From the IMG/VR virus record IMGVR_UViG_3300025597_000015, positions 1 through 58,305 of that record: 58,305 nt of DNA; one strand, written 5' to 3'. This document shows, in pieces, positions 26,306 to 55,415 of the stretch; position 1 is the stretch's first letter, and each line of letters opens with the position of its first letter. A program made the translations under genes and the position numbers. Below the pieces are notes generated by a model that was not told the origin of the DNA, did no database searches, and was given only the letters and a program-made list of their open reading frames with translations. The DNA is from a virus.

Positions 26306-26538
26306 TATACCCACTCAATATTGTTTCGAGATTCGATTACATCAATGCCTTGTGTTTTAATATAATTAATAAAATATTCCATATGTTCTACAGTTAACTT
26401 CTTTAGATCATATTTATATTTAAATTCATCAACCATATTCTTAACTTTAGATTTTGATGCTTTAATCTCAATTGCATAAATGGGAATATTATTTTGTGTA
26501 AAAATAAATACTTCAAAGTCCTGTGTTTTCTTTGCCAT
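26305..26538 (-). CDS. hypothetical protein
   Basis: TAATG overlaps at both ends. Confidence 0.5.
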   Translation of the reverse strand: MAKKTQDFEVFIFTQNNIPIYAIEIKASKSKVKNMVDEFKYKYDLKKLTVEHMEYFINYIKTQGIDVIESRNNIEWV

Positions 26539-26834
26539 TAACCCCACCTTTCATCATGTTTATTTTCTTCAGCCCATTCATAATGTATAATTCTGTGACA
26601 ATTTGCACAAACCACAACGGTTTTCTTTATTTCTTCTGAAACGCTTTTAATTGAATACCTATTGTGAACGGCATGAAATATTGAAAATTTCTTTTCTTCT
26701 GGATTTTTATGATGAAATTCCAGACATCGGGGATCATTACATCCACATCGAATACATGAATGATCTATTTTATATTGTTCTATATAATCTTTCAATTCTT
26801 GTCTTTTCTGTTTTGCATATTTGGCTCTATCCAC
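26538..26834 (-). CDS. HNH endonuclease
   Basis: CIRCG...LEFHHKNP...CANCHRIIH. Confidence 0.75.
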   Translation of the reverse strand: MDRAKYAKQKRQELKDYIEQYKIDHSCIRCGCNDPRCLEFHHKNPEEKKFSIFHAVHNRYSIKSVSEEIKKTVVVCANCHRIIHYEWAEENKHDERWG

Positions 26835-27078: not shown

Positions 27079-28499
27079 TTAATTACATTTACTCCAACCA
27101 CACGATTTACACACCTTACAGCCCGATTCTTTAACAATGTTCATTCCACATTCTGGACATAATTCAAATTTTATATTTCCATGTTCATCTATTGTCCCGT
27201 GTGTTTCAATAGATATATCGTTGTTTTGCGATAATATCGGAGAGTTATCAGTGATAATCATCTCCTCAATACTTCTTCCAATAATATCTGCACAAGACTT
27301 ACCATCACATTTTCCAAGTTTAAATTGATGATAAGCATTACTACATGTTATTTCACGACATGTTTTTACAATCTCACTTATAGGAACTCCATGTCGCATT
27401 TCTAAACAAATGTGATTAGACAATGCTTTTAATAAAGAGTCACAACCACCATCTGTATTTTGAATACAAATTTCATACGGTTTATTATCTTTAAATCCCA
27501 TAACAATATAAAGATTACCACAACCTGTTTTAACCTTTACACGCTCGGAACATTTGAGCGTTCTTGGTCGCTTTTCTGGAATATCTTTAAAACATTCAGA
27601 AATTTTAACTGGTTCGGGTTTCTTTAATGCCAGAACTTCATTTTCTCTACTGCCATTCCTATAAATTGTAAGTCCTTTGCAGCCCTGTTGCCATGCAAGT
27701 TCAATTATAGTTTTAATTTGTTCTTTAGTGGCATGATTCGGGAGATTGATTGTTTTACTAATAGACATATCTACAAATCTCTGAAATGCTGCCTGCATAT
27801 AAACGTGCTGATGTGGTGAAATATCCATTGCATTTTCAAAGAGTATTCTAAATGTTCTTGGTAAATTTTCTAAATCCTGAATTGTGCCTTTTTCATGACA
27901 ATGTTTAATTACAGAATCATATGCTTTTTGAAATTGTCCTTCTGGACGAAGATTTCTGGATTCAAGTTCTTTTCGCAGTGCAGCATCAAATAACGGATGC
28001 ACAATATAATGATCTCCCAATGTATCATGACGTGTATAAACCCAATTAAATACAGGTTCGATACCAGAAGAAACCCCCGCAATAAGACTAATCGTGCCAG
28101 TCGGTGCTATAGAATTAAGAGAAGCATTCATTCGATTATGAATAATATTTGGATTTTTACCAAGTTCTCTTGACACTCTATAAGAATGTTCAGCAATAAA
28201 CATCATTATCTGTTGTGCTTGATCTAATGCATTTTGACTATTATATGGAATTCCCATTTTGATTAATGCATCATGGAATCCCATAATACCCAATCCAATC
28301 TTTCGTGTGCGTTTGGATGCTTCTGCAATTTCGGGCAGTGGATATTTATTTTTATCAATTACATTATTAAGAAACACAATCGCACATTCAATCGTGTGTT
28401 TTAATTTAATATAGTCAATTTTACCATCTTTTATATGATTTGAAAGGTTGATACTACCCAAGTTACAACTTTCGCCGGATGTTAAGAGGGCCTCTCCGC
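27079..28499 (-). CDS. nrdJ: class II (B12-dependent) ribonucleotide reductase, exon 2
   Basis: After splicing it begins (C)GEALLTSGESCNLGSINL. C-terminal zinc ribbon CPECG...CKVCKSCG. The frame joins exon 1 exactly (697+1421 = 2118 nt = 706 codons). Confidence 0.85.
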
Positions 28500-28772
28500 C
28501 TTGTAGTGAGGCATTTTGTTACAGCAACAATGCTTCGTTGCAGGTGCGATCATTTCTGTCGCACTCTCATACTTTCATATGAGATCGGACTATATCATCA
28601 ATGTCGCGTCTATAGTCTCTGAACCTTCATCTCATTGGGATGCTTGGCTGCTGATTGCCCAATTATTTCTATTTTTAAAACATTCACGTTTATCATTTCT
28701 GATTGCGTTGTAGTTAGAAATACTTTAGGGTGTTCCAGCAATTTACGCGATTTTAAATCCGCACGGAGTTTT
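28500..28772 (-). ncRNA. group I self-splicing intron, 273 nt, no internal ORF
   Basis: On the minus strand: P AAAUUGCUGGAA (28733-28744), Q AAUCAGCAGCC (28647-28657), R GGUUCAGAGACUAUA (28611-28625), S GAUGAUAUAGUCC (28587-28599). P pairs with Q and R with S. The guide CUCCGU-GCGGAUUU (28755-28768) pairs with the 3' exon GCGGAG (P10) and the 5' exon AAAUCCGU (P1, U.G at the splice site). The intron ends in G. Confidence 0.88.
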
Positions 28773-29469
28773 ACGGATTTGTGTTCAACTCGCCGTTCTC
28801 TGGAGCAGGATTGTCTTTTTCAATTGTGTCCTTAAATAAAATACCCGGTTCTCCATTCTTCCAAATACCATCAATAATTAAATCCATGATTTCTGGATCT
28901 GGATTTTTCATAAATTCATCTGTAAGTTTTACAGAAATATTGAAATTCGAGAGTTCTCCTTCTTTGTTTTTACATACAATAAAATCTTTAATTTCTGGAT
29001 GTGTAATATCTAAACATCCCATCATGGCTCCACGCCGAAGCCCACCTTGTTTTACAACATCGGTCATTGTGTTAAATACTTCCATGAAGGAAACTACACC
29101 AGAAGATACACCTTTGCGATTTCCTACTTTGCTTCCTTTTGGTCGAAGTTTACTAAAGTTGAAACCAACTCCACCCCCTCGCGCGAATATCTTTGCTGCA
29201 TTTTTATTTGCATCAAAAATACTATCAATTGAATCTTCTACATCCAAATAAAAACAAGCAGAGAGCATAGGATTATCTGTACCTGCATTCATCAAAGTGG
29301 GCGAATTGGGTAGAAAATCCTTATTAACCATTAAATTATAAAATTCTTTTTCTTGTTCTGGACTATTTGCAATATATTTTGCCACACGATGACAAATCCC
29401 ATCCCAATCGTTTTCCCCATCTACACAATAACGTTCTTTAAGAATTTTATCAACATACTCACTGGACAT
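28773..29469 (-). CDS. nrdJ: class II ribonucleotide reductase, exon 1
   Basis: Ends ...ENGELNTNP plus the first base of the Cys codon. ATG at 29469 after GGGGA. The unspliced frame hits TAA immediately. Confidence 0.85.
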
Positions 29470-39164: not shown

Positions 39165-39237
39165 AGTCATTGATGGGGATTGAACCCATTAACTCCTGCT
39201 TACAAGGCAGGCGCAGTTCCATTACTGCTCCAATGAC
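39165..39237 (-). tRNA. tRNA-Thr (anticodon UGU)
   Basis: Hand-folded canonical 73-nt cloverleaf. Acceptor GTCATTG/CAATGAC, D loop TAATGGAA, anticodon loop CTTGTAA, T loop TTCAATC. Confidence 0.85.
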
Positions 39238-39246
39238 AATATATGA

Positions 39247-39339
39247 TTCTCGCATATATTACCTGTGCATAGGCAATATATTGTTGATAATAATACACTA
39301 TTATCTCCTGCGGATATTACTACAGACTCGCAACGAGAA
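39247..39339 (-). ncRNA. 93-nt spacer element closed by a 7-bp helix
   Basis: UUCUCGU pairs with GCGAGAA. The helix includes a U.G pair that is valid only on the minus strand. Internal hairpin GATAAT/ATTATC. Does not fit a cloverleaf. Confidence 0.3.
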
Positions 39340-39340
39340 A

Positions 39341-39413
39341 TACGCGAGAAAGGACTTGCACCTTAATTCTTTCCGTTATAAGCAGAATGCACTACTATAT
39401 ATGCTACTCGCGC
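39341..39413 (-). tRNA. tRNA-Ile (anticodon UAU), non-canonical elbow
   Basis: 73 nt with canonical arm lengths. Acceptor GCGCGAG/CTCGCGT, anticodon loop CTTATAA. The T loop is TGCAAGT (G at position 55) and the D loop ATATAGTA lacks GG. Confidence 0.75.
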
Positions 39414-39437
39414 AAAATACATATATATGACTTTTTT

Positions 39438-39512
39438 AATAATGGTACAGATTTGAACTGTACTCCCTGCTGATGCAGGTGTGCTAACCAAATTACACCA
39501 GTAATCCATTAC
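39438..39512 (-). tRNA. aberrant tRNA-like gene or pseudo-tRNA
   Basis: Good acceptor (GTAATGG/CCATTAT), D arm (GTGT-AATTTGGTTA-GCAC) and T arm (TACAG-TTCAAAT-CTGTA). The anticodon arm CCTGC-ATCA-GCAGG has only a 4-nt loop, and 5 extra nt follow the 5' acceptor strand. Confidence 0.45.
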
Positions 39513-39559
39513 CGATTAGGTAGAATTTATCTAGAAAATTCATTAAAGTCTAAACCTGA

Positions 39560-39643
39560 TGCGTGAAACAGGCATTGCACCTGTGAACTCCTACGAGAAT
39601 GCATCTTAAGTGCATCGGGTTTGTCTATCTTCCCTATTCACGC
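39560..39643 (-). tRNA. tRNA-Leu (anticodon UAA), class II, non-canonical elbow
   Basis: 84 nt. Acceptor GCGTGAA/TTCACGC, anticodon loop CTTAAGA, long variable arm. The T loop is TGCAATG (G55) and the D loop AAGATAGACAAA lacks GG. Confidence 0.8.
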
Positions 39644-54777: not shown

Positions 54778-55022
54778 CTTACAATAATTTGATACATATT
54801 ATTATCAATCATAGCATAAATTAACCATTTTTTGCCTCTACACACTCTATAAAAGAATGGTGCTATAGATGGATCATCAAAATCAAACCATTGAGTTGTA
54901 ATTTCTTTTAAAGTATATCGTTTAAATGGTTCGTCCTCATCTGTTATTATAAAATCTATTAGTTTTGTATTTTTATACAAATTATATTTCATTTCAATCA
55001 TCCTCTGAATGAACAAATTCAT
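54774..55022 (-). CDS. hypothetical protein
   Basis: 82-aa ORF. Confidence 0.55.
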   Translation of the reverse strand: MNLFIQRMIEMKYNLYKNTKLIDFIITDEDEPFKRYTLKEITTQWFDFDDPSIAPFFYRVCRGKKWLIYAMIDNNMYQIIVR

Positions 55023-55257
55023 GACATTCTTTACATAATGGAATTGTTCGCTGTAGTTCTCTTAAAACAGCATTCCACGAAAATGTTTTTCTTAAAAAGT
55101 CATGCATACTTAAACCATCCTCAATTCTATGAAATGTTATTGGTGAATCGTTAGAATTATAACGACCACATATAACACAATATTGTTTACATTTATATTC
55201 TTTATATTTTTCACGAATCTTTATTCTTTTTTCTTTTTTCAACATTTTACTTCTCAC
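54994..55257 (-). CDS. HNH endonuclease (small)
   Basis: CVICG...TFHRIEDG...CKECHEFVH. Confidence 0.65.
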   Translation of the reverse strand: MRSKMLKKEKRIKIREKYKEYKCKQYCVICGRYNSNDSPITFHRIEDGLSMHDFLRKTFSWNAVLRELQRTIPLCKECHEFVHSEDD

Positions 55258-55415
55258 ATTAATAAAATTTTTCCATCTTCTTTGTTAATCATTTGTCTTA
55301 ATTCACACATTTTACCTTTAACAAATGGACATTTTTCGCAGTCAATTCCCATTTGAAAAAATTTACAGTTTCCATTTTTTGAAAAAGCCTTTTTAAGAAT
55401 TTTAATGTCTAACAT
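55254..55415 (-). CDS. Cys-rich small protein (53 aa), family-related
   Basis: ATG at 55415 after GAGGT; ILKKAFSKNGNCKFFQMGIDCEKCPFVKGKMC resembles the N-half of the paralogue family. Confidence 0.45.
   Translation of the reverse strand: MLDIKILKKAFSKNGNCKFFQMGIDCEKCPFVKGKMCELRQMINKEDGKILLM

Follow-up and report, generated by a model that had tools for sequence, protein, structure and literature searches.

Ribonucleotide reductase (RNR) genes are the genes most often interrupted by phage introns (PMC3653736; PMC2248736), and group I introns at a catalytic site of such viral genes are of a familiar kind. For nrdJ, the gene of the class II enzyme, the entries of a 2013 survey were split genes only, with no introns (PMC3653736). 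As for the ribozyme itself, the catalytic domain has been described in a review as consisting of P3, P7, P8 and P9, with P2 alone noted as sometimes absent (PMC3984707). In archaea, the group I introns known in 2018 were all located in rRNA genes, as far as the part of Nawrocki et al. 2018 considered here goes (PMC6125680).

The locus reported here lies in a complete contig of 58,305 nt with 32% G+C, which is called the window in what follows and belongs to an uncultured tailed virus as judged from terminase and portal matches. The initial annotation of this DNA had proposed that a class II RNR gene is interrupted, precisely at the codon of its thiyl-radical cysteine, by a group I intron devoid of an endonuclease ORF. 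This proposal is supported by the present analysis; it was silent on the loss of P8, P2 and P7.1/7.2, on the intron being younger than the gene, and on the intein that occupies the same site in relatives. Considering all the evidence together, it is highly probable that the nrdJ gene of this tailed virus carries a functional, ORF-less group I intron with a reduced core, which is younger than the gene and has spread laterally.

All junction points were read on the minus strand, over window positions 28300-28950 (Table 1). Exon 1 ends in GAG UUG AAC ACA AAU CCG U, that is, ELNTNP followed by U28773, and the AA that comes next in frame turns this last base into a UAA stop (28773-28771). Exon 2 opens with G28499 and C28498, which complete the Cys codon (U plus GC) and yield the protein sequence TNPCGEALLTSGESCNLGSINL around the junction. 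Both the stop of the frame after ELNTNP and its resumption 273 nt further on, as first described, are thus read directly on this strand, and recomputing the junction of U28773 with G28499 returned exactly the restored U-GC codon and the 706-codon CDS that had been announced (697 + 1421 = 2118 nt, stop included), which corresponds to a 705-aa NrdJ. The ATG at 29469 gives MSSEYVDKILKERYC, in agreement with the N-termini of homologues. The intron does end in G (G28500), and the term ORF-less is appropriate, given that the longest sense ORF within its 273 nt is 43 aa long and has a TTG start. In terms of annotation, gene callers give two truncated ORFs, and the database entry P0001 is the 460-aa exon 2 ORF alone; the corrected annotation is that the virus encodes one complete NrdJ.

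Table 1. Coordinates of the nrdJ locus, its intron and the intron helices in the window (strand of each feature as indicated).
Feature	Position	Strand	Description	Basis
nrdJ exon 1	28773..29469	-	ATG 29469 to AAUCCG U28773; last base is base 1 of the Cys codon	ORF and translation
Group I intron	28500..28772	-	273 nt, ORF absent, omega-G is G28500	Rfam RF00028
nrdJ exon 2	27079..28499	-	GC GGA GAG to UAA 27081-27079	
Exon 2 protein content	27079..28499	-	barrel domain, TSCPD domain, C-terminal zinc ribbon	
P1	28755..28780	-	5' exon AAAUCCGU 28780-28773 with guide GCGGAUUU 28762-28755; 8 bp	
P10, guide strand CUCCGU	28768-28763	-	within the P1 loop	
P10, 3' exon strand GCGGAG	28494..28499	-	pairs with CUCCGU 28768-28763	
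P3, 5' strand UCGCGU	28745..28750	-		Rfam alignment and sequence
P3, 3' strand ACGCGA	28604..28609	-	one base (G28610) beyond the P7 5' strand	
P4 with enclosed P5, P5a, P5b, P5c	28649..28740	-		MFE fold, RNAalifold
P4 strands	28740-28735 / 28654-28649	-	UGCUGG / UCAGCA	
P5-P5c	28730-28658	-	L5c is GAAA	
P6/P6a hairpin	28623..28648	-		fold and RNAalifold
P7	28588..28617	-	GACUAUA 28617-28611 / UAUAGUC 28594-28588	
CAUUGAUGA	28595..28603	-	9 nt, sole sequence between P3' and P7'; P8 absent; J8/7-like GAUGA retained	
P9 hairpin	28566..28583	-	CUCAUAU-GAAA-GUAUGAG	Rfam, fold
P9.1 and P9.2 hairpins	28524..28564	-	P9.1 28564-28544, P9.2 28541-28524	
Free-standing HNH endonuclease gene	26538..26834	-	245 nt downstream of the nrdJ stop	PHROG 3106 and 2255, E 1e-21

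The spliced protein contains the Pfam domains Ribonuc_red_lgN (all-alpha), Ribonuc_red_lgC (barrel) and TSCPD, with PF02867 reaching 398 bits. An alignment to NrdJ, which had been recommended at the outset as a check, places it colinear with NrdJ of Thermotoga maritima (1xjk, E 3e-101) and gap-free through TNPCGE...CNLGSI. Counted from the printed alignment, the rebuilt cysteine corresponds to chain residue 322 of 1xjk and the next conserved cysteine to residue 333, which we take to be the thiyl-radical and redox-pair cysteines of the T. maritima enzyme. In the nearest intact homologues (e.g., P0002, 63% identity), ELNPNPCGEALL is uninterrupted. By its domains and motifs, the gene product is a class II ribonucleotide reductase, NrdJ, presumably B12-dependent, with the predicted radical Cys in NPCGE and the predicted redox Cys in CNLGS.

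The match of the intervening sequence to a group I intron goes far beyond what chance would give. The Rfam group I model RF00028 (Intron_gpI), whose use had also been advised in the initial annotation, matches positions 28782-28566 (-) from end to end (model positions 1-253) with a score of 78.8 bits (E 2.2e-18) against a gathering score of 50 bits, and this is the sole group I match of the model in the window even at E<=0.1. The minimum free energy of the RNA is -63.4 kcal/mol (z = -3.1 versus shuffles), and the single-sequence fold recovers P4-P6a, P7, P9, P9.1 and P9.2. The core elements are P = AAAUUGCUGGAA, Q = AAUCAGCAGCC, R = GGUUCAGAGACUAUA and S = GAUGAUAUAGUCC, and they pair as had been claimed, P with Q in P4 (UGCUGG/UCAGCA) and R with S in P7 (GACUAUA/UAUAGUC). 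The same holds for the internal guide (intron nt 5-18, CUCCGU-GCGGAUUU), which pairs with the 5' exon AAAUCCGU leaving a U.G at the splice site, and whose CUCCGU portion pairs with GCGGAG of the 3' exon to form P10. P3 (6 bp) and P7 constitute a pseudoknot, the strands following one another in the order P3, P7, P3', P7'. Next to the 3' splice site, a conserved GCC immediately 5' of the site is paired by RNAalifold with a GGC that spans it (G/GC; window 28486-28511, minus strand). According to this model, the GCC/GGC pairing (alignment columns 274-276 with 286-288) could represent a P9.0-like or a splice-site-masking helix.

The architecture of the core departs from the canonical one. In every canonical group I intron, a P8 hairpin is present between P3' and P7'; here the whole interval is CAUUGAUGA, and in the Rfam alignments of the window intron and of two relatives (L004 and L006) 59 model positions are deleted and one nucleotide is inserted at the P8 site. 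Likewise, only AAAA (28754-28751) separates the 3' strand of P1 from P3, so that P2 is absent, and a single nucleotide (G28610) lies between the 5' strand of P7 and P3', so that P7.1/P7.2 are absent too; the IA2-type arrangement, with P7.1/P7.2 between P7 and P3', is therefore not that of the window intron. P8, P2 and P7.1/7.2 are missing not only from the window intron but from all relatives at the same site. No description of natural P8-less group I introns was found in the literature searched, which is a weak negative and no proof of novelty; the P8-less architecture is possibly undescribed before.

The 5' half of the core, from P3 to P7, shows 73-83% nucleotide identity to introns of about 90 GenBank phages, whose hosts include Staphylococcus, Bacillus, Lactococcus, Listeria and others. 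The introns in a tail gene of Staphylococcus phage DW2 and in Caudoviricetes MW202615 share with the window intron the same P, Q, R and S consensus and a homologous extended P5 (CUACAACG...CGUGAAUGUU). Unlike the window intron, which has 1 nt and 9 nt at the corresponding places, they contain a P7.1/7.2 insert of 20-35 nt after R, plus P8. Phage introns bearing P7.1/7.2, such as these two, are presumably of IA type. In Listeria phage LPJP1 (L002 137-329), a match to the D1-D4 domains of a group II intron (94 bits) lies about 1.2 kb from a group I-like segment that resembles the window intron core.

A survey of viral contigs with a short R-to-S distance (about 120) indicates how far P8 is reduced elsewhere. 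A mini-P8 is obvious in every intron with 21-35 nt spacing, the smallest among the compact introns sampled being of 3 bp (CCC-GAAA-GGG). A second P8-less lineage with the same R and S motifs was detected: one of its members (L191) scores 55.5 bits, above the Rfam threshold, and four others (L185, L192, L198 and L041) have the same R-to-S spacing, with L185, the one that was aligned, reaching 34.6 bits. These segments lie at positions 1285-1326 of L041, 643-834 of L191 and about 3100-3500 of L198. Judged by eye from the flanking ORFs, the interrupted genes look like a putative terminase large subunit (L041 and L191, after the MDEVD motif) and a putative nrdD (L198). The L198 intron has a large P5 insert, and a LAGLIDADG-like ORF lies just upstream of that of L191. 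Another set of candidates, consisting of R and S motifs at very short spacing in jumbo phages, fell under the Rfam threshold and was excluded. These pairs are 13-17 nt apart in L127 (7133-8500) and in some 40 other jumbo-phage contigs (L128-L183), and are often duplicated at a distance of about 290 nt. Those of L127 closely follow a fragment of RNA polymerase beta' (NADFDGD), and a nearby segment reaches 19.9 bits. Such pairs may represent tandem introns that are degenerate, very rich in AT and separated by micro-exons.

Since P8 normally belongs to the P3-P9 catalytic domain (PMC3984707), autonomous catalysis in its absence is not guaranteed and a protein cofactor is perhaps needed. The RNA would in that case be spliced, but a viral or host protein of the maturase or chaperone kind would fold it or hold J8/7 in place. 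That closely related phage introns retain both P8 and P7.1/7.2, and that even the most compact of the other introns sampled keep a 3-bp P8, fits such a dependence. However, P3, P4, P6, P7, the J8/7-like GAUGA, the GAAA of L9, P1 and P10 are all intact, the Rfam score is far above threshold, and in relatives the intron is not associated with any conserved gene for a candidate protein. Protein-assisted splicing appears rather improbable compared with splicing by the RNA on its own.

The same intron occupies the same nrdJ position in at least seven distinct metagenomic virus variants (the window, L004, L006, L181, L189, L190 and L193, several of them on more than one contig), which were collected by searching IMG/VR with protein guidance and JGI metagenomes with a DNA pattern. 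Its size ranges from 267 to 273 nt, none of the variants has an endonuclease ORF in it, and the two relatives scored with RF00028 (L004 and L006) reach 67.3 and 72.4 bits. When a hand-written structure was laid on the seven-variant alignment with short exon flanks, 98.2% of the cells were paired, versus 30-43% when the structure was slid. Changes on both sides were found at six pairs of this structure, one in P1, one in P5a and two each in P9.1 and P9.2, and RNAalifold, run independently, arrived at identical helices with seven compensatory pairs. The most informative of these changes concerns the P1 pair beside the splice site, which passes from G-C to A-U in three of the seven variants, exon CCG becoming CCA together with guide GCGG becoming GUGG; the exon base involved is the synonymous position of a Pro codon. 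The U.G at the splice site and the terminal G are kept in 7/7. P9.1 exists as GUGCGA/UCGCAC, GUGUGA/UCACAC and GUAUGA/UCAUAC, and both this helix and P9.2 contain two compensatory pairs; P5a shows a compensatory UA to CG change, and P6a one compensatory pair plus an indel in the loop. In P10 the inner four pairs are invariant, and the outer two vary or are broken in some variants. P4 and P7 are 100% paired in the seven variants, yet invariant, and P3 displays one U-A to U.G change. At 90-96% identity, P3, P4, P6 and P7 hardly or never vary, and covariation thus neither supports nor contradicts them.

The exons provide a further line of evidence. Both are under purifying selection (dN 0.09-0.40, pS 0.62-0.82 and saturated dS in the five full-length variants), and dN far below a saturated dS argues that exon 2 is translated in frame, with selection acting on its product. 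Purifying selection on the exons, the covariation between the exon and guide strands of P1 and the conservation of the arrangement in seven variants imply splicing, which on these comparative grounds is very likely; guanosine-dependent self-splicing would be implied indirectly by the selection on the exons. A decayed, splicing-dead remnant within an nrdJ pseudogene, or two halves translated as separate subunits, might also be envisaged from the missing P8, from the in-frame TAA that ends exon 1, from the two ORFs reported by the ORF caller (P0001 being exon 2 alone) and from the natural occurrence of split nrdJ genes in other phages (PMC3653736). Nevertheless, a dead remnant is at variance with a dN/dS far below 1 in both exons of the five full-length variants, where dS is saturated, and with a P1 that covaries with the exon. 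Independently translated split subunits, which the initial annotation had named as the arrangement that would speak against an intron, are not supported: the Cys codon itself is split, so that the radical cysteine is encoded in neither of the two parts, and a conserved start or ribosome-binding site is lacking in exon 2 (the start being a TTG beyond the Cys in the window and lying elsewhere in relatives). Taken together, decay and separate translation appear extremely improbable.

For the favored reading, that of a spliced intron, a pathway can be outlined by analogy with the standard two-step group I reaction. The intron would be transcribed within the nrdJ pre-mRNA, and a guanosine cofactor would attack after U28773, held as a U.G wobble in P1. 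The terminal G28500 would then take the G site in P7, while P1 and P10 would align both exons on a single guide, so that ligation would remake the UGC codon of the NPCGE thiyl-radical cysteine. The ribozyme responsible would be composed of P1, P3, P4, P5-P5c, P6/6a, P7, P9, P9.1, P9.2 and P10. With at least three genes interrupted (nrdJ and the putative terminase and nrdD genes), these introns represent a natural experiment on a minimal group I core kept under selection without P8, P2 and P7.1/7.2, and an intron of 267-273 nt offers a compact candidate ribozyme for asking what P8 contributes.

The intron and its host gene differ in their degree of divergence. Pairwise identity among the introns is 90-96%, versus 66-85% for the 300 nt of exon on each side; unpaired intron columns are 92% identical, versus 51-54% at third codon positions of the exons near the junction. 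The NrdJ proteins of intron-bearing viruses are 63% identical to that of the window in global alignment, and NrdJs that are equally close to it, or closer, carry no intron, the distribution being patchy. With introns still at 90-96% identity in viruses that have reached saturation at the synonymous sites of the exons, these comparisons suggest that the intron is far younger than the gene that it interrupts and has recently spread laterally without a homing endonuclease gene of its own. A similar pattern, "recent transfer of old introns", was reportedly described in T-even phages by Sandegren and Sjoberg in 2004. Co-conversion tracts were sought as a footprint of homing and rejected, as flanking exon identity shows no rise towards the junction.

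This flat profile, together with the absence of an endonuclease gene in cis, is also what vertical inheritance would leave behind, in which case the high intron identity would be due to very strong constraint on a minimal ribozyme; with few peripheral elements, a larger share of intron positions may indeed be constrained. Such constraint fits poorly with loop and unpaired columns that are 92% identical next to exon third positions at 51-54% and a saturated dS, with the lack of introns in the nearest NrdJ relatives (63%), intron-bearing loci having first surfaced among lower-scoring matches of the locus search, and with the fact that other viruses of the clade have an intein at this site. Vertical inheritance thus seems distinctly improbable. 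Under recent lateral spread, the intron would have moved among related viruses, perhaps, and speculatively, by means of an endonuclease acting in trans.

Within one viral clade, the site between NP and CGE is found empty (P0002), occupied by an intein or occupied by the window intron. NrdJ inteins between NP and CGE are present in P0003 (59% identity), in P0008 and in Moorella phage MTATph1 (45%; L200 660-3011), and precomputed Pfam intein and LAGLIDADG domains are available for P0003, P0008 and other matches; the intein site is 1 nt upstream of that of the intron. In this viral clade, inteins also reside in homologues of the terminase and of PolB (P0130, P0135 and P0229). In principle, an intein endonuclease that cuts empty NP-CGE alleles could drive repair from an intron-bearing allele, and the intron would, hypothetically, shield its own allele from that endonuclease. 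Closer at hand is the free-standing HNH gene downstream of nrdJ (Table 1), of which a second free-standing HNH gene at 54997-55284 (-) is a distant paralogue (phmmer E 1.5e-07). As a partner of the intron, the HNH gene of the window was rejected, given that phmmer over all ORFs of the relatives' loci revealed no homologue beside nrdJ, and no endonuclease gene consistently linked to the intron was found at those loci.

As to the host, no close relative was found among isolates, and neither the portal nor the putative capsid protein matched any GenBank phage. Several hints point to archaea: for the family B polymerase and for a protein resembling prohead proteases, tailed viruses of haloarchaea are the best or the only matches, and Methanomicrobiales (43-45% identity) are the only organism names among the best 120 NrdJ matches, bar one 'Candidatus Babeliales' MAG entry that looks viral, its contig having the length (65,257 nt) of one that carries a terminase homologue. 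The ribosome-binding motifs within 20 nt upstream of ATG starts are mostly AGGTGAT-like (GGTG in 19/65, GGTGA in 14/65, GGAG in 9/65 and GGAGG in 3/65). With GGTG versus GGAG at 12/71 versus 42/71 in a Clostridium phage and 7/32 versus 10/32 in the methanogen virus psiM2, the window leans to GGTG more than psiM2 and differs from the Clostridium phage. In addition, the scanned ORFs yielded no peptidoglycan hydrolase. On the bacterial side, the nearest relatives of the intron are in phages of Firmicutes and other bacteria, the window has a DUF7192 protein in common with Staphylococcus, Clostridium and Enterococcus phages, and the NrdJ of the Moorella phage is as close as the archaeal NrdJs.

Assigning the host by a provirus and genome scan was tried and abandoned: among 185,579 species, only two 'genomes' contain the intron pattern, one of them binned as a Patescibacteria MAG and the other as an 'archaeon' MAG, and both are the same viral contigs. 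None of the contigs with terminase or PolB relatives exceeds 128 kb, and the labels of the MAG bins that include related contigs (archaeon, Patescibacteria, Babeliales and Clostridia) are inconsistent. Regarding other signals, a sigma-70 promoter scan gave 109 sites versus 110 expected, terminator-like sites number 12 versus 6.8 expected and are mostly intragenic, and the palindrome AACAAATTGTTT upstream of two genes was dismissed as a signal because its enrichment is no greater than chance. Three tRNA genes lie at 39165-39643 (-), namely Thr-UGU, Ile-UAU and Leu-UAA. The codons that they read all end in A, which would be expected if an AT-rich virus (32% G+C) replicates in a host of higher G+C content. 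Overall, the archaeal hints are real but not decisive, and the chances of an archaeal host are roughly even or somewhat less. A more ambitious reading combines a Methanomicrobiales-type methanogen as host, a group I intron without precedent in archaeal viruses and in protein-coding genes of the archaeal sphere, and an undescribed P8-less and P2-less subclass that spreads without its own endonuclease, perhaps via the LAGLIDADG endonuclease of the competing intein; as a package, we regard it as unlikely. Were the host archaeal, the known range of group I introns would be widened.

Compared with the systems already described, the archaeal introns in the part of PMC6125680 considered here belong to subgroups IA3 and IB4, often contain LAGLIDADG genes, and include none that is viral or protein-coding. 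The RNR introns of T4 nrdB and nrdD/sunY, Twort nrdE, SPbeta bnrdE/bnrdF and nrdE/nrdF of the Bacillus cereus group are likewise situated at a highly conserved catalytic site; the window intron differs from them in its host gene, the class II nrdJ, in the absence of an endonuclease ORF and in a core without P8, P2 and P7.1/7.2. With collaborative homing in trans, in which ORF-less introns are associated with free-standing endonucleases (PMC3984707), it shares a conserved site, signs of spread and a nearby HNH gene, but in contrast to those cases the HNH gene is missing beside the nrdJ of relatives and there is no co-conversion gradient. The alternation of intron and intein at one site recalls the RNR genes of SPbeta and the phrase 'lightning strikes twice' (Derbyshire & Belfort 1998, in the form in which PMC3653736 cites it), with the difference that here the alternative occupants belong to different sister genomes within an uncultured clade. 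Intron, intein and empty allele thus compete for a single protein-coding site within one clade, and an endonuclease-free intron has apparently still spread recently. What raises this intron above the ordinary is the combination of a P8-less core under selection, apparent lateral spread without an endonuclease, competition with an intein and a possible archaeal host.
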